From positions 1 to 35,037 of IMG/VR virus record IMGVR_UViG_3300022832_000002: DNA of 35,037 nt; one strand, 5' to 3'. The notes beneath the pieces are model-generated. The model did not search any database. It saw only the letters and a list, made by a program, of their open reading frames with translations, and was not told the DNA's origin. The stretch's first letter is position 1. Each line of letters starts with the position of its first letter. Origin of the DNA: a virus. The position numbers and the translations under genes are program-made. Positions 114 to 8,865 of this stretch are shown here, piece after piece.

Positions 114-571
114 GAACCATCATTGCAGATGACGAGTTTGAAGCCTTTTGGTCAGTTGTTCCACGAAAGGCTGGCAAGGGGCAGGCCGTCAAGGCATGGA
201 AAGCCGCAACCAAAAAGGTCACCCCGCAAACCATTATAGACGCAATGGGCGCATATGCCAGACAGCGACAGGGCCAAGATCAGCAATACACGGCGCACCC
301 TGCCTCATGGCTTAACGGCGAGCGATGGCTAGATGAGGCCGCAGCTTCCCCAACGGACTTTTACGACAACATCCAGAAACACCTATCGGAGAAAATGAAT
401 GAGTTACCAGACACGCCTAGCATCGGCCACAATGCTTATCACCGACTTTCTGCGCCAGTATCAGCGCCCGACACATCTGGACGACGAGGGATGCATGAGG
501 GAAATAGCGGCGATAGCAGAGGAGGTGAACGGTCTCATCTCAGCATCATCAAGCCCCGAAAATTTCCGTGA
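2..571 (+). CDS. Replication initiator, C-terminal part. It continues 34638..35037 across the circular junction, giving 285 aa in total.
   Basis: Same frame as the open-ended ORF at the window end through the 113-bp overlap. It contains FEAFWSVVPRKAGKGQAVKAWK ... HPASWLNGERWLDE, which I recognise as the C-terminal module of HTH-type phage/plasmid initiators. The last ~57 codons overlap the next gene and look like run-on. Confidence 0.75.
   Translation, partial: PQMDAETPHMDTQTPHMDVINPAGDAPEPSLTIKNHKRTIIADDEFEAFWSVVPRKAGKGQAVKAWKAATKKVTPQTIIDAMGAYARQRQGQDQQYTAHPASWLNGERWLDEAAASPTDFYDNIQKHLSEKMNELPDTPSIGHNAYHRLSAPVSAPDTSGRRGMHEGNSGDSRGGERSHLSIIKPRKFP
84..120. repeat. Four helically phased AACCAT motifs in an A-rich stretch, a candidate DNA unwinding/bending element of the origin.
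   Basis: AACCAT occurs at 84, 94, 104 and 115 (spacing 10, 10, 11 bp) within GAACCATCATTAACCATAAAGAACCATAAAAGAACCAT, directly after the iteron array. Confidence 0.5.
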
Positions 572-956
572 CCGGATCGAAACGGCTTTCCGGCACATTC
601 GCAAAACTTACACGCAGCGCGCATGGCCGATGCCAGCACATTTTATTAAGGCGCTTGACGCAACCGCTAAACGCGAAGCGGTTGAAATCACAGGCAAGCC
701 CTTTGCCAGCGAAGACGCGATCCAGATTGTTGCCCGCCGCATTGCTGCCGGTGACTCTGTTGGCGACGGCTGGCTTTATGGCCGAGGTGCGGTCCAGCTT
801 TTGCGCGAAGGATTGGTGACGACTGACCAGATTCGCAAGTATCGTTCTGCGCTATACTTCGCAGCCAAAGAAGTCGGGGGGCAAGAGTATGCCCAGCGCA
901 TAGAGGATGCATTGAAGGAAAAGCATAATTCGGCCGCAACGCTTGAGAACGCATAA
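399..956 (+). CDS. Hypothetical protein, a possible replication accessory protein by position only.
   Basis: ATG at 399 follows GGAGA (388..392). The 185-aa ORF lies immediately downstream of the initiator. No motif was recognised. Confidence 0.6.
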   Translation: MSYQTRLASATMLITDFLRQYQRPTHLDDEGCMREIAAIAEEVNGLISASSSPENFRDRIETAFRHIRKTYTQRAWPMPAHFIKALDATAKREAVEITGKPFASEDAIQIVARRIAAGDSVGDGWLYGRGAVQLLREGLVTTDQIRKYRSALYFAAKEVGGQEYAQRIEDALKEKHNSAATLENA

Positions 957-1014
957 ACCGCTTGACGCAGTTTATGATACATGCAACTTTAGGAAGGCAT
1001 AAAGGAGATATGAT

Positions 1015-1389
1015 ATGCTAAACATGACCATTGCAGGCAACGTCGGAAAAGACGCGGTTCTGCGCAAAACACAAAACGGCGACTCGGTTCTCGGCTTTTC
1101 GATTGCCGTAGATCAGGGCAAGGACAAGGGCGGCAACAAGCGCGACAGCGTTTGGGTCAGCTGTTCGATCTTTGGTCAGCGGGCCGACAGCCTGCAAAGC
1201 TACATTACCAAAGGTTCCAAGCTGGCGTTGTCTGGCAAGCCCAGCGTCAACGTCTACGAGGGCAAAGGTTCGCTGCAACTGCTGGTCAATGAATTGACGT
1301 TCATGGGTGGCGGCGGCGAACGGTCCGAGCAGGGCGGCTATGACCAGCCACCGCAATCCAATGTGCCTGACGACGAAATTCCATTTTAG
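1015..1389 (+). CDS. ssb: Single-stranded DNA-binding protein
   Basis: AAAGGAG SD upstream. It has an OB-fold-like N-terminus, a Gly-rich spacer (MGGGGERSEQGG) and the acidic tip DDEIPF typical of SSB C-termini. Confidence 0.9.
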   Translation: MLNMTIAGNVGKDAVLRKTQNGDSVLGFSIAVDQGKDKGGNKRDSVWVSCSIFGQRADSLQSYITKGSKLALSGKPSVNVYEGKGSLQLLVNELTFMGGGGERSEQGGYDQPPQSNVPDDEIPF

Positions 1390-1390
1390 G

Positions 1391-1612
1391 ATGGCACAGA
1401 TTGACATCACAGCAGAAGGCAAAGGCACGTTCCAGATGGTTCTTGCCAATGCCGAAGCTGGCGACGAAATCTTGTATCACGTCGGCAAACACGCAGCGGG
1501 GGCGCATAAGTATGAAGCCTTCGTTGCACACCAGCGCGGGGAATGTTTGCTTTATCAGCGCCGCCTTGGTGAAAGCCGTTTTGCCTACATCGCCCGCAAG
1601 ACCCAACCATGA
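1391..1612 (+). CDS. Hypothetical protein (73 aa)
   Basis: ATG lies 2 nt after the ssb stop. Its ATGA overlap leads into the next gene, so it fits the coupled operon. Confidence 0.6.
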   Translation: MAQIDITAEGKGTFQMVLANAEAGDEILYHVGKHAAGAHKYEAFVAHQRGECLLYQRRLGESRFAYIARKTQP

Positions 1613-1842
1613 AGCCTTGGGCTACGGGTGACGCAATCGGATCTGGCGACGTTTACTTGCCGGACACCAAGACAAAGGCCGCATATGGCCAAGCCTGCCG
1701 CGCAGCAATCATCAACAGCGCCGCGCGACACGCAATAAACCTAACCACCCTGCAAGCACGCAGGGACTACATCAACGGCCACCCAGCGAAAGAACAACTA
1801 AAAGCGCGGGTGTCGGAACTATGGGAGAGCCGCAATGAATGA
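1609..1842 (+). CDS. Hypothetical protein (77 aa)
   Basis: ORF-track ORF with an ATGA overlap to the upstream gene. Confidence 0.6.
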   Translation: MKPWATGDAIGSGDVYLPDTKTKAAYGQACRAAIINSAARHAINLTTLQARRDYINGHPAKEQLKARVSELWESRNE

Positions 1843-2026
1843 CCCGCAAGAGCGCGTTGGCCGAGGGCAATGGTTCAGCCACGACGGGCCGATCTGGATT
1901 GACACGCTGGGCGATGAATACCTGCTTAACTGCTACAAGACCTGCGTGCGCCACGACAACCCGAAGGCTGACGAATTGCTTGAAGAAATCCGAAACAGAA
2001 ACATGGAATGGAGATTAGAGGGATGA
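1835..2026 (+). CDS. Hypothetical protein (63 aa)
   Basis: ORF-track ORF with an 8-nt overlap to the upstream stop. Confidence 0.55.
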   Translation: MNDPQERVGRGQWFSHDGPIWIDTLGDEYLLNCYKTCVRHDNPKADELLEEIRNRNMEWRLEG

Positions 2027-2547
2027 CTAAATTCAAAGTAGGCCAGAAGTGGCGGATGCGTAACGACGCCTCTGCGGTGCTGGATCGCGACGAACTTATT
2101 GAGCTGATCTGCAAGGCCATCGGTGGCGGGGACAAGGTTGGTATGGTCGATTTTCATGTGGCCGAAGACATCGCGGATGCGTTGCTTGCTCGGCCATCCC
2201 CTGACGCGCTGGACATGGCTACTAAGGGGGGTGGAGTGATGGGGGACGCACCAGAACGGATTTGGGCCTATGGTCGAACCGGATATTCGATTGAAGATGG
2301 AACGTGGGATAATTCAGAAAAACCAAATTGCTCGCAGGACTGGCCGCACGAAAAATACATTCGCGCCGATTTTGTTGACGCCATCATTTTTGCGGCGCAG
2401 GCCGTCATTGACAGATGGGACAGCCCAGATTGGAAAGACGAAAAGCACACGGCAGATTATATCAATGCAGCGCGCCGCGCCCTGAACACCCCCGAAACCC
2501 GCGCCGCGATACTGGCGGACGCTATGAAAGGACATACCAATGATTAG
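2023..2547 (+). CDS. Hypothetical protein (174 aa)
   Basis: ATG at 2023 forms an ATGA overlap with the upstream stop. An alternative in-frame ATG lies at 2008. Confidence 0.65.
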   Translation: MTKFKVGQKWRMRNDASAVLDRDELIELICKAIGGGDKVGMVDFHVAEDIADALLARPSPDALDMATKGGGVMGDAPERIWAYGRTGYSIEDGTWDNSEKPNCSQDWPHEKYIRADFVDAIIFAAQAVIDRWDSPDWKDEKHTADYINAARRALNTPETRAAILADAMKGHTND

Positions 2548-2767
2548 AATTGACCTGCGATATGCTTTGCCAGTCATCGCGTTTTATGTGCCGACGCTCA
2601 TGTTCGCCAGCCTTGGGCTGATGATAGGGTATCCTCTCTCCGATATGCGAGAGGCGTTGCTTGCGATTGGCGCCTTTGGCGGGCTTGTGTTGTCAGCAGG
2701 TACCATTCTCCATTATTCCGCCGAGCGGAGAGAGCCGGTCTGGTTTTACATTAGGGGGCGTGAATAA
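2540..2767 (+). CDS. Small membrane protein (75 aa, two hydrophobic segments)
   Basis: AAAGGA SD lies 8 nt upstream. Hydrophobic stretches are ALPVIAFYVPTLMFASLGLMIG and LLAIGAFGGLVLSAGTIL. Confidence 0.65.
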   Translation: MIRIDLRYALPVIAFYVPTLMFASLGLMIGYPLSDMREALLAIGAFGGLVLSAGTILHYSAERREPVWFYIRGRE

Positions 2768-2841
2768 TGGACCTTATCACAATAATGCGGCTGCGTTGTT
2801 CACGGCGCTGGCAATGGCGGACGCTATGAAAGGAAAGACTG

Positions 2842-3114
2842 ATGAGTGACATGTCGATAATTGTTCTTGCGATCCTGTGGTGGACGTTCGCCGTTAGTGC
2901 GCTTGCAATCGCGGCATCACATGAGGGCACGATGCATTGGCGCGTCATTGGATACGCGCTGTTCTGGCCGATGCCTCTGCCCGTCATTGCGGTTTTCCTG
3001 ACTTACGACATGACCGTGAAGTCGACGAAAAGACTGCGGGCCGACCTGCAAAACCGGAAACTTCTCAGAGAGTTCGACGCGTATATGCGCAAAAAGAAGG
3101 AACAGACAACATGA
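2842..3114 (+). CDS. Small membrane protein (90 aa) with a basic C-terminal tail
   Basis: The same AAAGGA-N8-ATG context as gene 2540. Hydrophobic stretches are IIVLAILWWTFAVSALAIA and LFWPMPLPVIAVFL. Confidence 0.65.
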   Translation: MSDMSIIVLAILWWTFAVSALAIAASHEGTMHWRVIGYALFWPMPLPVIAVFLTYDMTVKSTKRLRADLQNRKLLREFDAYMRKKKEQTT

Positions 3115-3233
3115 CATCACTATACATAATCATATTCGCAATAGGCTCGATGGTCGAAACATTGGAGGCGCTTTGGGGCAAGCTAGTGGACGCATACTGC
3201 GTGGGTCTGGCATGTGATGTGGCACGGCCATGA
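3111..3233 (+). CDS. Very small hydrophobic protein (40 aa)
   Basis: ATGA overlaps on both sides (3111 and 3230). The N-terminus is MTSLYIIIFAIGSMV. It lies below the ORF-track start choice (track ORF 2937..3233). Confidence 0.45.
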   Translation: MTSLYIIIFAIGSMVETLEALWGKLVDAYCVGLACDVARP

Positions 3234-3589
3234 CAGAGCAAGAAATCAACATCGTCGCGGAAATGCACAGGGCGGGTCGCAGCCATGCCGAGATACAAAA
3301 GGCCACAGGATTTGGTTACACCAAGGTTGTCCGGGCTGTTGTCATAGCACGCAAGGCAGGCATAGTCCCACCGCGCAAGATCAAGGCATCGCCTCGGCAG
3401 CAGGTCAAAGACCGCTTTCAAAATCACATGATTAAATTTGGAAACATCGGGGACATATTGCAGGTTCTAAGCAAGGACCAACAGGACTGGATCATCAACG
3501 AAGTCGGCAAGAACGAATATGCTGACGTCGCTGAATACATCACCGAACTTGTCCGTGACGCACATGCAGAAAGCACAATGACCAAATGA
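3230..3589 (+). CDS. HTH DNA-binding protein (119 aa)
   Basis: N-terminal EMHRAGRSHAEIQKATGFGYTKVVRAV resembles a resolvase/terminase-type HTH. Translationally coupled to its neighbours. Confidence 0.6.
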   Translation: MTEQEINIVAEMHRAGRSHAEIQKATGFGYTKVVRAVVIARKAGIVPPRKIKASPRQQVKDRFQNHMIKFGNIGDILQVLSKDQQDWIINEVGKNEYADVAEYITELVRDAHAESTMTK

Positions 3590-4065
3590 CCTACCAACCT
3601 GTCGTGGGGATCAACCCAATCTACAAATCAGGGTCCGTCACCCGCTGGCACGCAAACCCAGATGTGCCAGCCCAGACGCTTGCAGATCACCACTGCAGGG
3701 TGGCACAGATTGTGTGCTACTTTTTTCCATCGGCATCTGCATCGCTTCTCTACGCGGCCTTGCATCACGATTGCGGGGAACTGATGGTCGGTGACGTTCC
3801 AAGCCCGGCCAAGCAAGACGAGCAGTTGGCACACTTCTTGCACCTACGGGAAGCAATCGCACGGCAGGAAATGGGCATTGACGTGATCGACCACCACGAC
3901 CCGCGCCTGACCTTCGCTGACAAGCTGGAGGCTTACACCTACGTCGCATTGACTAGACCGGACATGATGGGGCTAGCCCAATGGGTCACATCTCTATCGG
4001 ATCTAGGCCAGATGGCTGATACGCTGAACATATCCGACCGTCTTGTGCAGTGGTTTGAACAATAG
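3586..4065 (+). CDS. HD-domain phosphohydrolase (YfbR-like 5-prime-deoxynucleotidase family)
   Basis: R-W-H ... LADHHCRVAQI ... ALHHDCGELMVGDVPSPAK matches the H...HD...D pattern of HD hydrolases. Confidence 0.7.
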   Translation: MTYQPVVGINPIYKSGSVTRWHANPDVPAQTLADHHCRVAQIVCYFFPSASASLLYAALHHDCGELMVGDVPSPAKQDEQLAHFLHLREAIARQEMGIDVIDHHDPRLTFADKLEAYTYVALTRPDMMGLAQWVTSLSDLGQMADTLNISDRLVQWFEQ

Positions 4066-4399: not shown

Positions 4400-6121
4400 A
4401 TGGCCAGATCGACACTGACACCAGACCAAGAGCGGCGTAACGCCTATGCAGCGGCAAACATGCTGCCGTTGCCTTTCGACGACAACCGGCCCGTGAACAT
4501 CCTTGATCTGCCTCGGTCTGAATTCATGGCCATGCTGCCAGAGATCCAGCAGAGCGGCGGCGACGTTGACATGATGCTGCGTGAGTATAATCGGCGCAAC
4601 TCTATCTTCGCCCCGATCATGGATGCGGCAGACAGATCCAGCCAAGAGATGACAAAAGCTGGCCGACGCCCTGTCGCTGGCACAATGGGCTTGCTGTCTC
4701 GGAACGTTGAGGGCGACCTTAGCCTGCGCCCAGAGCCGATGGCTGCACTGACTGGGCTTCTAGGCGGCGGGTTTGGCGCTCTTGACCAGACGCTGAACGC
4801 CACTGTGGGCCGTGTGCCTGCCGCTGATGTGGATGCAGCCGCCCTGACGGGCGCTGGGCTTGCTATGGGCGGGGGTGGCCTGCTGTCGCGTCCTGCTGGC
4901 TCTATCGGCATGGGCGGGCGTGTGGCTGCGCCTGATCTTAACGTTGCCAGAAAAGATGCCTCAAGCATATTTGGGGCTGGCACTGAAAGAGTTAGATATA
5001 CTGATCCAAACAGCGGCGGAACAATGGAAGTTGTGGTCCGTCCTGATGGTAGCGCATCCGTATTAGAACTTGAGGTGCCAGAAGGGTTTCGCGGTCAGGG
5101 CATTGGGCAAGCACTTCAATCGCGTGTCATGCAAGATTTCCCAGTAATGGGCGGGCAGGTTTCTTCTAGAGCCGCAGCGACAACCGCTTACAGATTGGGG
5201 CGCAGACCTTATGGCAGGCCGGACGCAACAATCGAAGATGTGTTTCGAGCAATAGACGAAGACAGTTCTGTAAATTTAATAACACCCGCTGCGCAACCGC
5301 GTCCCGTATCACCAGCCCAAGAGGTTGCCGCCCTTCTACGCTCTGGACGTGCTGCCGATGTCACCGACGAAATGATGGCACGGGTGGACCCGCAGGAGAT
5401 GTTTGCGCTTTACCAGCGGGGCGAGACAGGCATGGACCTGCCGATGGATGAAGCCAGTAGGATGCGCCGAGCCATCCAACAGGGATTTGACGTAAACGAT
5501 GAAATGTATCGTGGCGATGCGCCGCGCTTGGCGTTTCAAACAGGCCAAGGCCAGCGAGACCAAATCGGCGTAACAATGTCGTCCAGCCCAGATGTCGCGG
5601 CGTCTTACATTCCGGCTCGTGGTGATGGCGGCATTTACCCGATTTTTTCACGCGGCCAAAGTGATGCAATCATTGATGCTCAGGGCCGAAATTGGAATGT
5701 GATAGACCGCAACGCGCGCGTCGGTTTTCAGGGTGATGATTCATTGCTGCGTGATTACATTCCAGACAGTTACTTTGAGCCATATGATGTCATGTCTGGA
5801 ACGGATTTTCTTGACACGAACGATTTATCTAGGATGTTTCAAGGCTATGGCGCAGATAGGGTCAGGTTTAACGACTTGGTGGATCGGGGAGGGTCCGCAA
5901 AGTATTATGGACCAGAAAGTTCAATGCCGTCTGATGTTATGATGGTTTCAAACCCAGCAAACGTCCGTTCCCGCTTCGCCCGCTTTGATTCCCGACTATC
6001 TAATCTATCCAACCTCAACGCAGCCAACGTATCCCCACTAGCAGGCTTACTTGCTACTGGTGCAGGACAAGCCGAGATGGAACGCCTGATGCCTTTGCTT
6101 GGTTTGCTTGCTGAAAGATAG
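4400..6121 (+). CDS. Large multidomain protein of unknown function. It has an internal GNAT-like motif, Gly/Ala-rich linkers and a C-terminal domain with weak ADP-ribosyltransferase-like features.
   Basis: AAGGAG SD upstream. LELEVPEGFRGQGIGQALQ resembles GNAT motif A. MYRGD ... VTMSSSPDVAASY loosely resembles the R and S-x-S elements of ARTs. The ORF is 573 aa. Confidence 0.7.
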   Translation: MARSTLTPDQERRNAYAAANMLPLPFDDNRPVNILDLPRSEFMAMLPEIQQSGGDVDMMLREYNRRNSIFAPIMDAADRSSQEMTKAGRRPVAGTMGLLSRNVEGDLSLRPEPMAALTGLLGGGFGALDQTLNATVGRVPAADVDAAALTGAGLAMGGGGLLSRPAGSIGMGGRVAAPDLNVARKDASSIFGAGTERVRYTDPNSGGTMEVVVRPDGSASVLELEVPEGFRGQGIGQALQSRVMQDFPVMGGQVSSRAAATTAYRLGRRPYGRPDATIEDVFRAIDEDSSVNLITPAAQPRPVSPAQEVAALLRSGRAADVTDEMMARVDPQEMFALYQRGETGMDLPMDEASRMRRAIQQGFDVNDEMYRGDAPRLAFQTGQGQRDQIGVTMSSSPDVAASYIPARGDGGIYPIFSRGQSDAIIDAQGRNWNVIDRNARVGFQGDDSLLRDYIPDSYFEPYDVMSGTDFLDTNDLSRMFQGYGADRVRFNDLVDRGGSAKYYGPESSMPSDVMMVSNPANVRSRFARFDSRLSNLSNLNAANVSPLAGLLATGAGQAEMERLMPLLGLLAER

Positions 6122-6158
6122 ACCAAGCAAAACAAGCGTGCTATCGTGTGCGCCAACA

Positions 6159-6566
6159 ATGGAGAACAAAGTGCCAGCAGGACGTCCAACAGATTACACG
6201 CCAAAACTTGTCGAGAAGGCTTGGGAATACGCCAATGGCGGATGGGAAAATGTTGGCGACCCTGTGCCAAGTGTAGCAGGTTTGGCATGTGAGATTGGCG
6301 TTCGCCGCGAGACTTGCCACGTCTGGGCAAATGACAAAACAAAAGAGTTTTCTAACATCCTTGGCAAAATAGCCGAAACGCAAGAGCGTCAATTGCTGCG
6401 CGGCGGTCTTGGTGGGGTTTTCAACGCACCTATCACAAAGATGATGATGACCAAGCACGGCTACTCTGACAAGGTAGAGCAGGACGTCACATCCAGCGAC
6501 GGATCACTTGCGCCGACGCGCATAATCATCGAGGCCGCATCGGCTGATGACAAACGCGACGATTAA
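6159..6566 (+). CDS. terS: Terminase small subunit
   Basis: (M)PAGRPTDYTPKLVEKAWEY is the typical TerS N-terminal HTH. The gene overlaps the terL start. GTG at 6171 follows GGAGA and may be the true start. Confidence 0.8.
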   Translation: MENKVPAGRPTDYTPKLVEKAWEYANGGWENVGDPVPSVAGLACEIGVRRETCHVWANDKTKEFSNILGKIAETQERQLLRGGLGGVFNAPITKMMMTKHGYSDKVEQDVTSSDGSLAPTRIIIEAASADDKRDD

Positions 6567-8865
6567 ACTTCCGCCGAAGCTGGTGCCTGTCCTGTCGCCA
6601 AACAGGGGCGCTGCACGGTATCGGGCGATCTACGGTGGCCGAGGGTCTGGCAAGTCGTTCAGTGCGTCTCTCATGGCCGCTGTGTGGGGCTACGCAGAGC
6701 CATTGCGGATCTTGTGCGTCCGAGAGTTTCAAGCAAGCATCAAGCAATCCATGCACGCCGAGATCAAGGCGGCGATCGAGGCGCACCCGTGGCTGGAAGC
6801 ACACTACGATGTCGGCGTGGATTACATCCGAGGCGCGAATGGGACGGAGTTTATCTTTCGGGGTCTGCGCCGCAACGAACAATCCATCAAGTCGCTGGCC
6901 AAGATTGATCTGACCATCGTTGAGGAAGCTGAGGACATTCCAGAAGGGTCATGGCTCGCTCTTGAGGCAACGGTGTTTCGCCAGCCTAAGTCCGAGATCT
7001 GGGCGCTGTGGAATCCAAAGACGGAACGCAGCCCGGTTGACAGGCGTTTCCGCCAAGACAATCCGCCGGGCCTGTTCTCAGCGGAGATCAACTGGCGCGA
7101 CAATCCTTACTTCCCCGATGGCCTAAAGGCGCTGCGTGAACAGCAGGAAAAGACGCTCGACAAGGCGGTCTACGATCACGTCTGGGAAGGCGCATATCTG
7201 CGGGCGTTGAAGGGGGCGTATTATGCCGATCTGCTGGATGTGGCGCGCAAGGAAAACCGGATCGGGTTCTACAACAAGCACGGCATGAACAAGGTCTATG
7301 CGGTCTGGGACATTGGCTCAACATCATCGTCAGCGGATGCCACGGCAATGTGGATCGTGCAGTATGTCGGTGAGGAGATCCGCTGGCTGGATTACTACGA
7401 GGCTGTCGGCCAGCCATTCGAGGCGCACGTCAATTGGCTGCGTGAGAACAACTATGCTGATGCGACATGCGTTCTGCCGCACGATGGGGTCAAACACGAC
7501 AACGTCTACAGCGTGACGCCGGAGAAGTTTCTGCGAGAGGCTGGCTTCGCAACGTATGTGGTGCCAAACCAAGGCAAGGGCGCTGCTGTCCAGCGGATCT
7601 ATGCATTGCGGTCCATGTTCCCGCAGTGTCGGTTCAATGAGGACGCAACGGTTGCCGGGCGTGAGGCGCTGTCATGGTATCACGAGAAATGGGACGACAA
7701 GCGCGAGATTGGCTTGGGGCCAGATCACGACTGGGCTAGTCACGCGTGTTTAACCGGTGACGCCATTGTTTCTACCAGCCGTGGGGCGGTGCAGATCAAG
7801 GATGTGATGGCTGGTGACTTCGTTCTAACGCCTGCCGGATATGCATTGGTTGAATGGTCTGGCATGGTAAAGACAGCTTGCGAAACAGTGCAGATAACGC
7901 TTGATGACGGGCGCAAATTAGAAATGACGCCAGAGCATAAAGTATTCACGATTGAAGGCGTTGTTGTTGCAGATGCAATCGGGTATGGTGACATGATAAT
8001 CACAAATGAGGATGTGTCATGTCTGAAGTTGGAGAACGCAAACGCTGCGGGGTATCGGACCGCTTTTTCAGAGAGTATGGCGGCACCAAGTTTTGGTTCT
8101 GGCCTAAGCGCGGCTTTTACGTTTCTCAGCGGGGCGGCAAGCAAGTTATGCTGCACCGTGTCTGGTTGGGCGCTTCAAAATCAGATGAAGCTGTTCCCAT
8201 TGATGGCAATTGGGACAACTTCGACCGTGACAACTGGAATGTGCGAGGCAGGAACGTCGGCAGGAATGTTGCATCAAAGCATCCGTTCCAAACGCTCAAC
8301 GGCGTTAAGTATTACGTCAGCCCAGAAACTGGATACTACTCTAGACGTTACCCTAGGTCAGAATTTATGCACCGAGCAGTATGGATTGATGCGCATGGTG
8401 AAATACCTGACGGCTATCACATACACCACAAAAACCACGACAAGTCCGACAACAGGCCGGCAAACCTTCAATGCATGTCGGCATCGGATCATTCCATGTT
8501 GCACGCTGAAACAAACCCGTGGGTCGGAAGCGACGAAAACAAGCGGCAACTTCGCGCCGCTGGCAAGCTGGCCCGTGGCGGGCGCAAAATGCGCGTTGGC
8601 TGCTGTGAGGTCTGTAATGCGGAATTTGAGACCATCGCGCTCAATCGTAGGTTCTGCGGCAAGAGTTGTCGCTATAAGTCGGAATGGCAGCGAGAAGCCA
8701 GTTTACGATCTGACTGTTAACCATCACCACTGTTATTTCGCCAACGGGGTTCTGGTTAGCAACAGCGATGCTGCTGGCCTTGTGGCTGTCTTCGCCCCGA
8801 CAGCCCGTGGTGAGAGCGCGACCAAGAACGAACCGATCAGACGGAACCTGCGCGGTCTAGCGTGA
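6547..8865 (+). CDS. terL: Terminase large subunit precursor containing an intein (433-aa extein plus 339-aa intein)
   Basis: Walker A YGGRGSGKS, Walker B LTIVEEAED, and nuclease-domain motif HDWASHA|...|SDAAGL split by the intein. It is one uninterrupted 772-codon ORF. Confidence 0.9.
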   Translation: MTNATIKLPPKLVPVLSPNRGAARYRAIYGGRGSGKSFSASLMAAVWGYAEPLRILCVREFQASIKQSMHAEIKAAIEAHPWLEAHYDVGVDYIRGANGTEFIFRGLRRNEQSIKSLAKIDLTIVEEAEDIPEGSWLALEATVFRQPKSEIWALWNPKTERSPVDRRFRQDNPPGLFSAEINWRDNPYFPDGLKALREQQEKTLDKAVYDHVWEGAYLRALKGAYYADLLDVARKENRIGFYNKHGMNKVYAVWDIGSTSSSADATAMWIVQYVGEEIRWLDYYEAVGQPFEAHVNWLRENNYADATCVLPHDGVKHDNVYSVTPEKFLREAGFATYVVPNQGKGAAVQRIYALRSMFPQCRFNEDATVAGREALSWYHEKWDDKREIGLGPDHDWASHACLTGDAIVSTSRGAVQIKDVMAGDFVLTPAGYALVEWSGMVKTACETVQITLDDGRKLEMTPEHKVFTIEGVVVADAIGYGDMIITNEDVSCLKLENANAAGYRTAFSESMAAPSFGSGLSAAFTFLSGAASKLCCTVSGWALQNQMKLFPLMAIGTTSTVTTGMCEAGTSAGMLHQSIRSKRSTALSITSAQKLDTTLDVTLGQNLCTEQYGLMRMVKYLTAITYTTKTTTSPTTGRQTFNACRHRIIPCCTLKQTRGSEATKTSGNFAPLASWPVAGAKCALAAVRSVMRNLRPSRSIVGSAARVVAISRNGSEKPVYDLTVNHHHCYFANGVLVSNSDAAGLVAVFAPTARGESATKNEPIRRNLRGLA
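7747..8763 (+). mobile_element. Intein within terL (Hint splicing domain halves flanking an out-of-frame HNH gene)
   Basis: Block A is CLTGDAIV starting at 7747. Block B is TPEH at 7927..7938. Blocks F/G are VYDLTVNHHHCYFANGVLVSN ending at 8763, followed by Ser at 8764. Confidence 0.85.
8019..8720 (+). CDS. HNH homing endonuclease, encoded in a different frame from the intein that surrounds it
   Basis: GAGGA (8008..8012) lies 6 nt before the ATG. The HNH motif HIHHKNHDKSDNRPANLQCMSASDHSMLH is at 8418..8504. The C-terminal tail CCEVCNAEF...RRFCGKSCRYK looks like a zinc ribbon. Confidence 0.85.
   Translation: MSEVGERKRCGVSDRFFREYGGTKFWFWPKRGFYVSQRGGKQVMLHRVWLGASKSDEAVPIDGNWDNFDRDNWNVRGRNVGRNVASKHPFQTLNGVKYYVSPETGYYSRRYPRSEFMHRAVWIDAHGEIPDGYHIHHKNHDKSDNRPANLQCMSASDHSMLHAETNPWVGSDENKRQLRAAGKLARGGRKMRVGCCEVCNAEFETIALNRRFCGKSCRYKSEWQREASLRSDC

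Follow-up and report, generated by a model that had tools for sequence, protein, structure and literature searches.

An HNH endonuclease gene overprinted on a terminase intein: a probable two-part mobile element in viral TerL genes

How can one segment of DNA serve both as the linker of an intein in an essential gene and, in another reading frame, as a gene of its own? The question is raised by the IMG/VR virus record IMGVR_UViG_3300022832_000002, of which positions 1 to 35,037 (35,037 nucleotides, nt; hereafter the window) were analysed. Its gene for the large terminase subunit (TerL) carries an intein, and the same DNA contains, in another frame, an open reading frame (ORF) for an HNH endonuclease. 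Most probably, the locus is a two-part mobile element residing in the essential TerL gene, namely, a contiguous intein whose central 0.7 kb encodes a separate homing endonuclease of the HNH_3/zinc-ribbon type in the −1 frame.

The TerL precursor is encoded by one uninterrupted ORF (6547..8865, + strand; 772 amino acids, aa, and a stop), in which the N-extein, the intein and the C-extein share a frame. Pfam searches in this frame identified Terminase_3 (E-value = 4.9e−25) and, in the 339-aa insert, Intein_splicing (PF14890; 52.9 bits at a cut-off of 35.8, E-value = 4e−13). The latter match spans insert residues 44–339 and is divided between both ends by filler; Hint_2 is matched at residues 1–44, and weaker matches to Hint_2, Vint and Hint fall within residues 1–70. 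The intein boundary residues are in place: C1, TPEH of block B, the C-terminal Asn (the TerL-frame translation of the intein ends with ...ANGVLVSN) and Ser at +1. The TerL-frame filler of ~225 aa between the splicing halves produced no Pfam match, and T/A/S/L/G make up 52% of the residues of this linker. The 433-aa TerL left after removal of the insert aligns in one piece over junction 400/401 with intein-less TerLs, including those of Sulfitobacter phage pCB2047-A (49.6% over residues 20–418), Paracoccus phage KLEP18-1 (48.3% over residues 20–428) and several Vibrio phages. Around the junction, 49 homologous host ORFs share the consensus N|CDAxRY (the bar denotes the splice junction), with the conserved D kept, and hidden Markov models (HMMs) of intein-N and intein-C built from window-type columns recover the equivalent segments in relatives. 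A blastn search with the TerL gene against phage records retrieved short extein matches only (67–77% identity) and no close relative. A preliminary description of this DNA had seen a TerL interrupted by 339 codons with intein blocks A, B and F/G, a normal 433-aa TerL joined at the conserved nuclease Asp, and a linker without an endonuclease motif in the TerL frame; the ORF translation together with the Intein_splicing match, the collinear intein-less TerLs and the empty Pfam result for the filler bear out these points, respectively.

The nested ORF is read one base apart from TerL, HNH codons starting at 0 mod 3 and TerL codons at 1 mod 3. In the HNH frame, HNH_3 is the sole Pfam family above threshold (62.7 bits, cut-off 24.8, E-value = 2.4e−17) and 15 HNH-endonuclease families of PHROGs are matched, while the third forward frame has 27 stops across the same ~1 kb. 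Residues H134, H136, H137, N145, N149, H158 and H162 are invariant in five distant phages; in the zinc-ribbon-like module C196, C199, C213 and C217 are invariant, and relatives have one or two such modules. A TGA (8007..8009) closes the HNH frame just 5′ of its ATG. At the other end, the TAA stop (8718..8720) falls within block-F codons (GTT AAC = V N), so that the C-terminal splicing subdomain shares its DNA with the 3′ end of the HNH ORF (the last nine sense codons plus the stop). These coordinates, the Pfam match and the invariant residues agree with what had been described of the ORF, i.e. 233 aa with its own GAGGA-N6-ATG, an HNH motif, a CxxC tail and a TAA inside block F. The prediction that splicing domains would be matched in the TerL frame and HNH_3 in the other frame only was likewise correct.

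The HNH protein is modular. When its residues 1–89 were compared with residues 90–233 by BLASTP, an internal duplicate was recognized (E-value = 2e−5). The N-terminal copy reads ...PIDGNWDNFDRDNW... and the active copy ...HIHHKNHDKSDNRPANL..., the catalytic His having been lost from the former. This duplicate is kept in L005–L016 and P0002–P0009, is absent in more distant relatives, and probably represents a DNA-binding module. The AlphaFold model of the 233-aa protein, computed with nine database homologues, has a mean predicted local distance difference test score (pLDDT) of 85.3 and a predicted template modelling score (pTM) of 0.41, the low pTM being what a model of a string of modules would typically give. 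The zinc-ribbon-like module shows a weak local structural match to the zinc-ribbon protein YacG. A sequence search against PDB chains produced only toxin A repeats, which we consider a chance match. A protein homology search of a collection of 5.8 billion proteins returned nine proteins for the nested HNH, all on short contigs, one of them (P0001) identical; this set is too small for a census but sufficed for the structural model. Features of the locus are listed in the table.

Table. Features of the TerL intein locus and of the HNH ORF nested in it (window coordinates).
Feature	Position	Strand	Description
N-extein	6547..7746	+	400 aa, end ...GPDHDWASHA
Intein, TerL frame	7747..8763	+	339 codons, Cys1 (CLTGDAIV) to ...VLVSN
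N-terminal splicing subdomain	7747..8010 (3′ limit approximate)	+	block A CLTGD; block B TPEH at 7927..7938; from sequence
TerL-frame linker	8011..8691	+	+1 reading of the HNH gene; stop-free, without recognisable domain
C-terminal splicing subdomain	8692..8763	+	blocks F/G: EKPVYDLTVNHHHCYFANGVLVSN
C-extein	8764..8862	+	33 aa, SDAAGLVAV...; Ser+1, then conserved nuclease-domain Asp
Extein junction as it would read without the intein			...CACGACTGGGCTAGTCACGCG|AGCGATGCTGCTGGC...
Shine-Dalgarno-like GAGGA	8008..8012	+	6 nt 5′ of ATG 8019
HNH endonuclease ORF	8019..8720	+	233 aa + TAA; −1 frame relative to TerL ('frame 3')
N-terminal module of HNH protein	8061..8282	+	~residues 15–88; degenerate HNH_3 duplicate
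Catalytic HNH_3 domain	8364..8498	+	residues 116–160; ...GYHIHHKNHDKSDNRPANLQCMSASDHSMLH
Zinc-ribbon-like CxxC...CxxxC module	8604..8669	+	residues 196–217, C-terminal

Is this layout peculiar to the window? Viral contigs were scanned with an alignment of five HNH proteins, which gave 564 confirmed relatives, of which the best 80 were analysed further; 70 unique HNH regions were obtained in this way from IMG/VR contigs, four phages and the window itself. The HNH gene is nested in 49 of the 70, within host ORFs of several hundred to ~1100 codons (shorter where the contig ends). In all 49 the host frame is HNH+1, never HNH+2 and never the HNH frame itself. All but one of these host ORFs (48/49) match Intein_splicing, and they belong to two TerL families, Terminase_3 (23/49) and Terminase_6N (21/49). 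Blocks F/G (VYDLTV..H.Y.ANG.LV.N|C/S/T) start 2–32 codons 3′ of the HNH stop, and in each of 85 sequences, viral and phage, the open stretch of the HNH frame spans no more than 157–305 codons. Using tblastn with the HNH ORF, we found matches underneath the annotated large-terminase coding sequence in four GenBank phages, Rhodobacteraceae phage LS06-2018-MD07, Tetrasphaera phage TJE1, Clostridium phage phiCDHM19 and Acinetobacter phage Highwayman. Each of them has the HNH in the −1 register within an unbroken TerL-intein ORF, so the contiguous form is present in cultured phages. One host ORF of the nested set matches LAGLIDADG_3; it may be that of L027 (575..3805; 1077 aa), in which ...ILVTN|TDVEDH marks the end of the intein with the HNH and another intein (CLSGNTLV...) apparently starts six residues further on, nearly back to back with the first.

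The nested form is also present on contigs of bacterial and archaeal genomes and metagenome-assembled genomes (MAGs), at ~19–21 of 42 loci, again always with the host frame at HNH+1. In Roseomonas chloroacetimidivorans JCM 31050 (L105, 2225..4531) the overprinted HNH intein lies inside the ATPase (Terminase_6N) domain and not ahead of the nuclease Asp, which makes it a second insertion site. The chromosome of Allohahella sp. A8 has two nested copies ~52 kb apart, L118 (750230-756433) and L119 (802616-808819), which share ORF coordinates and match statistics and may stem from two related prophages or from a duplication. Bins assigned to Halobacteriales and Thermoplasmatales carry the nested form as well, while the case of a Methanimicrococcus bin is ambiguous, its host frame being broken before the C-terminal intein half (IntC).

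Which of the two overlapping frames is under selection? As the preliminary description had proposed, the TerL frame is kept free of stops across the HNH region: the nested loci have 0 host-frame stops in 10,477 HNH codons, compared with 4.55 stops per 100 codons in the +1 frame of 21 non-nested relatives (12.3 in their other frame). The dicodons NTG|A were not observed in nested loci, against 97 expected, and NTA|R dicodons number 0 in nested loci versus 143 in the non-nested relatives. At the non-nested rate ~10.6 stops would be expected over 233 codons (Poisson P of zero stops ~2.5e−5), and none of 1000 synonymous-codon shuffles of the window's HNH ORF left the TerL frame stop-free (mean 4.97 stops). 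The open TerL frame is not due to chance. In pairs of closely related nested loci, differences at HNH codon positions 1/2/3 number 38/20/110. Position 3 of HNH codons is position 2 of host codons, where any change alters the host-frame residue. Amino acid identities for HNH and host frame in successive divergence bins are 0.95/0.89, 0.59/0.41 and 0.35/0.20, and the frame-specific substitution pattern of nested loci matches that of the non-nested relatives. The concentration of substitutions at the third position of HNH codons shows purifying selection on the HNH frame; for the TerL-frame linker, the avoidance of stops is the one constraint detected. This places the locus among the longest same-strand phage overlaps with a clean asymmetric signature, in which one frame is subject to selection at the protein level and the other is only kept stop-free. 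Free-standing HNH genes have 2.7-fold fewer stops in the +1 than in the +2 frame, which might be a simple reason why +1 became the host frame.

The way the HNH protein would be made is suggested by the sequences around its start. At the 49 nested loci the nearest HNH-frame stop lies a median of 4 codons (maximum 23; 3 in the window) 5′ of the first start codon. That codon is ATG in 42 of 49 cases as against a background of 32%, and a Shine-Dalgarno (SD)-like motif of at least 4 nt precedes 31 of the 49 starts (63%) but only 17% of control sites (p ~8e−13). No slippery heptamer of the form X XXY YYZ is present in the window at 7951..8025. Taken together, these observations point to internal initiation rather than −1 frameshifting, in keeping with the previously proposed free-standing endonuclease, whose own SD, ATG and closed upstream frame are the marks of a separately initiated protein.

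Other arrangements within the same HNH lineage were sorted out by searching the non-nested loci with the HMMs of the intein N and C blocks. In the fractured arrangement, found at eight IMG/VR loci and in two cultured phages, the N-terminal (IntN) and C-terminal intein halves surround the HNH gene and the host frame is broken. The frame relation is as in the nested form in L039, L049, L058 and Vibrio phage 1.245.O, and different in L044, L054, L056, L068 and Lactobacillus phage CL2. In CL2 (L085, KR905067.1) the annotated 'large subunit terminase' (506..1954; TerL-N/IntN) stops just past block B, the HNH gene occupies 1967..2590, and an unannotated ORF (2490..2774), overlapping the HNH 3′ end by ~100 nt, encodes IntC and the C-extein (...DGGFIVHN|CMDATRYF...). 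Because the latter ORF is unannotated, the annotated CL2 terminase is without the part of TerL that has the conserved Asp. In the TerL of Vibrio phage 1.245.O (L087, MG592610.1; 27..3389) the first of two inteins has a LAGLIDADG-like region, and the second, located downstream of it, is fractured (IntN ORF ending at 2537, HNH 2423..3133, IntC ORF 3060..3389). About 9 of the 42 loci from bacterial and archaeal genomes and MAGs are fractured as well. In L066 (2332..3531) the HNH ORF (2884..3531) is located after, not inside, a mini-intein (N blocks 2332..2562, C blocks 2653..2736). Free-standing HNH genes occur in the annotated phages BP10 and Shemara, where they lie beside terminase genes, and in ~12 contigs. 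The sole in-frame case among ~110 relatives is L127 (2383..4545, Actinomycetota MAG), in which a cellular RtcB has a canonical in-frame HNH_3 intein. In the neighbour-joining tree of HNH proteins these states are interspersed, at a resolution too weak for the direction or number of transitions.

The placement of the window locus between in-frame inteins and fractured genes gains support from the co-occurrence of overprinted, fractured, free-standing and in-frame states within one HNH family. Linkers broken by stops, regarded in the preliminary description as evidence against its reading, were found in a minority of relatives; all of these are split-intein versions, and the linker frame of contiguous versions is not shown by them to be irrelevant.

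Several alternative explanations of the locus have to be weighed. An ordinary in-frame HNH intein would look the same if two compensating indels near 8010 and 8720 had been introduced by sequencing or assembly, and in-frame HNH_3 inteins do exist, as in the RtcB of L127 and in the dCTP deaminase of cyanophage CL131 (PMC6293099). Yet the exact 772-aa protein occurs on four contigs, and two different assemblies, Logan SRR7529753 and ENA ERZ27315910, have 0 mismatches to the window DNA over 6.3 and 5.5 kb. The same offset recurs at 49 unique viral and ~20 genomic loci, including the four GenBank phage genomes; the HNH frame is closed a few codons 5′ of an ATG preceded by an SD; and two random indels would not yield a stop-free alternate frame of 230 codons. 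The layout is not an assembly artefact, and compensating indels, the first thing to be checked according to the preliminary description, are effectively refuted and can be disregarded for practical purposes. Hardly more credible is programmed −1 ribosomal frameshifting, by which the HNH would be produced as a TerL-N/IntN-HNH fusion. Relative to TerL the HNH is indeed read in precisely the −1 frame, the direction in which phage frameshifts usually go, but the signs of separate initiation and the missing heptamer stand against such a fusion, as do the free-standing and fractured relatives, which start at the homologous Met. The gene could also be functionally split, TerL being made in two trans-splicing pieces with the open frame irrelevant. 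Since fractured versions are found in the viable phages CL2 and Vibrio 1.245.O, the halves can evidently work in trans. In the window, however, no stop follows the N half, and stops are completely absent at the 49 loci, as are the dicodons NTG|A and NTA|R, which one would expect only where read-through translation matters; we therefore regard a split gene as very unlikely.

The remaining alternatives concern mobility, on which the conservation of individual segments has a bearing. The clade values that follow are approximate, because intein starts were set by a regular expression and the boundary in the window was off by 40 residues. In the clade of the window, identity is 42–58% for the HNH, 71–92% for the C block, 22–50% for the N-extein and, lowest of all, 23–36% for the host-frame linker. 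The exteins of L009 and L011 are 22–26% identical and their HNHs 48–53%; likewise, Acinetobacter phages BP10 and Highwayman share 51% identity between HNHs and 27% between TerLs. The TerLs nearest to that of the window lack both intein and HNH, i.e. the distribution is patchy. Judging by these sequence comparisons, the pattern is as would be expected if intein and HNH spread horizontally as a unit. An immobile intein, effectively a mini-intein with a long junk linker in which the HNH ORF is a decaying relic, would be consistent with the homing cycle, which predicts decay of the endonuclease after fixation, and the N-terminal HNH-like module of the window protein is already without its catalytic His. 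Against decay, the ORF is unbroken and retains every invariant catalytic and Cys residue, its frame is under purifying selection, its structural model is confident and the intein-HNH unit is better conserved than the exteins; we consider the relic improbable, if a little less so than a split gene. Somewhat greater, though still small, is the chance that the HNH serves mainly, or also, as a terminase accessory nuclease in packaging, similar to the cos-associated ones, with the intein as a carrier. HNH relatives adjoin terS/terL in BP10, CL2 and Shemara, and HNH nickases beside terminase genes are known (PMC3592412). The window protein, in contrast, is of the HNH_3 type, has I-HmuI as its best structural match and does not match the small cos-associated type; moreover, the nearest TerLs do without intein and HNH, so the HNH is dispensable for packaging in this TerL lineage, and its patchy distribution looks mobile.

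BP10 and Highwayman were also considered as a pair of empty and occupied TerL alleles, and rejected, their TerLs being only 27% identical. As a separate observation, these TerLs are 27% identical over the N-terminal 200 residues, yet their last 15 residues are nearly identical (GMQINIADIESAFGR and GLKINMADIESAFGR; 4907..4951 in BP10, L086, and 3629..3673 in Highwayman, L004). The shared tail may have been conserved for binding to the portal or another partner, or it may mark where a recombination took place. In the surroundings of the window TerL, the upstream ORF (6099..6566) overlaps the TerL start by 20 nt and corresponds to a gene for a 131-aa GP3_package (small-terminase-like) protein in matching public contigs, and the genes downstream match the SU10_adaptor and Gp80 families. 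The window thus looks like a packaging/head module of an SU10-like podophage.

The most plausible explanation, then, remains the contiguous intein with an overprinted homing endonuclease, which could work as follows. Ribosomes translating TerL would read through the HNH region and produce the ~225-residue filler; the N- and C-terminal Hint halves would fold together and splice, joining ...HDWASHA to SDAAG... and restoring the nuclease active-site region of the 433-aa TerL. Other ribosomes, to judge from the sequence signals, would initiate at 8008..8021, where the internal SD and ATG are located, and produce the 233-aa endonuclease as a free protein. By analogy with other homing endonucleases, this enzyme presumably acts during co-infection by nicking or cutting TerL alleles that lack the intein, whereupon repair would copy intein and HNH together. 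The overprinted form would be one of several interconvertible ways for the endonuclease to live in or beside its target, because the same HNH lineage is also found free-standing near terminase genes and between split TerL intein halves.

A number of points weigh against this explanation. Protein splicing, translation of the HNH ORF and cleavage of the intein-less TerL allele are three steps that we infer. The penultimate residue of the intein is Ser, not the more usual His, as in many relatives. The TerL-frame 339-aa intein was modelled by AlphaFold with a mean pLDDT of 30 (single sequence, no alignment), and disorder of the linker is suggested by its composition, lack of domain matches and low conservation. 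The closest solved structure to the HNH protein, I-HmuI (1u3e), was matched with a probability of 0.94 but an E-value of 0.017 and TM-scores of 0.21–0.27, i.e. weakly at the global level. Finally, the viral census represents the best 80 of at least 564 relatives, and metagenomic loci are phylogenetically non-independent.

A broader proposition, towards which we lean only slightly, is that out-of-frame nesting is the predominant and evolutionarily stable state of the HNH_3/zinc-ribbon lineage, repeatedly interconverting with fractured and free forms and almost never in-frame. It would extend over phage lineages numbering in the dozens to hundreds, over two TerL families and several insertion sites, and over hosts from both Bacteria and Archaea. 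If true, the lineage would be a natural series, cultured phages included, showing every step of endonuclease acquisition and split-intein origin, and gene callers would systematically overlook a large class of ~0.7-kb same-strand overlapping genes. Cultured phages with the contiguous (Highwayman, phiCDHM19, TJE1), fractured (CL2, Vibrio 1.245.O) and free-standing (BP10, Shemara) forms would allow models of these two processes (Dassa 2009; Gosselin 2025) to be put to the test. For annotation it matters that the nested HNH is almost never called and that, in fractured CL2, the short IntC/C-extein ORF with the catalytic Asp has been left out. With a view to tools, inteins of this kind have split relatives in nature and seem able to accommodate more than 200 residues of unstructured insert, and the HNH nucleases are candidate site-specific nickases.

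How does the window locus compare with known systems? The arrangement had been thought to be undescribed, which turned out not to be the case. Gosselin, Arsenault & Gogarten (bioRxiv 10.1101/2025.01.02.630785) report inteins of actinobacteriophages with an Endonuclease VII-like homing endonuclease in frame 3; the cases are limited to PhagesDB actinophages and called rare, and the terminase large subunit is among the hosts. We confirmed the architecture on the intein of Keitabear, in which frame 1 consists of Hint halves and stop-free filler rich in S/T/A/P, and frame 3 encodes an Endonuclease_7 protein (E-value = 8.9e−20) ending just before block F. Shared with the window are Hint halves plus stop-free filler in the host frame and a same-strand frame-3 nuclease between the splicing blocks. 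The nuclease differs, being HNH_3 plus zinc ribbon (233 aa) in the window and Endonuclease_7 (PF02945/IPR004211, ~125 aa) in the inteins described there, and so does the distribution, since the HNH_3 form is found in two TerL families, at least two insertion sites, many bacterial phyla and some archaeal bins. Analysis of stop avoidance or codon positions is not described in the text seen. In a tblastn search with the TJE1 HNH ORF, no PhagesDB-type actinophage was among the best 60 of 455 records.

An out-of-frame HNH is also present in the ShiLan domain (Arsenault et al., Genes 2025, PMC11855218), where a frame-3 HNH is hidden in a stop-free insert of a mycobacteriophage DNA methylase, the HNH frame being predicted ordered and the host frame disordered; relatives of the ShiLan domain include a free-standing HNH beside the target gene. 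As in the window, a third-frame HNH lies in a host gene whose own frame stays stop-free. The ShiLan domain is, however, devoid of intein splicing domains and its filler stays in the methylase, whereas the filler of the window would be spliced out. Furthermore, no ribosome-binding site was found for ShiLan and leaderless GTG initiation was proposed, whereas starts of the HNH_3 family are ATG with enriched SD.

Fractured genes, with a free-standing homing endonuclease gene (HEG) between split-intein halves, were described by Dassa et al. 2009 (PMC2677866), a terminase being among the hosts; their HEGs belong to the GIY-YIG and Vsr-like types, HNH being no more than a predicted further case. The window resembles them in having the HEG between intein halves, with its own start and a 3′ end overlapping IntC coding, but its host ORF is unbroken, the fractured state being represented by CL2, Vibrio 1.245.O, L039, L049 and L058. 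Canonical in-frame HNH inteins, such as those of the L127 RtcB and the CL131 dCTP deaminase, the latter shown to splice (PMC6293099), likewise have an HNH_3 nuclease between the splicing halves; in the window, by contrast, the nuclease is a separate protein of another frame, and no HNH is matched in the TerL frame. With I-HmuI, its best structural match, the window protein shares the HNH_3 catalytic motif and a modular, beads-on-a-string build. Sequence identity is low (12%), as is the global TM-score; the window protein has other DNA-binding modules (degenerate HNH-like plus zinc ribbon), and I-HmuI is encoded by an intron. The cos-associated zinc-ribbon HNH nickases (Xu & Gupta, PMC3592412) were rejected as members of the same family owing to a different HNH subfamily and size, and the window protein (HNH_3 only, 233 aa) is similarly unlike the packaging HNHs associated with cos and terminase (HK97 gp74-like and N.phiGamma-like; ~120 aa, PF01844).

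In the literature searched, no account was found of terminase inteins overprinted with an HNH_3 gene, and the phage-genome papers PMC5418858, PMC8228797 and PMC6293099 mention no terminase intein with an HNH out of frame. In comparison with these systems, the apparently new features are the nuclease family, its wide distribution, the quantified stop avoidance with one-sided selection and the SD-dependent starts, as well as the presence of all arrangement states within one lineage and an invariable frame relation, shared with two independent cases.

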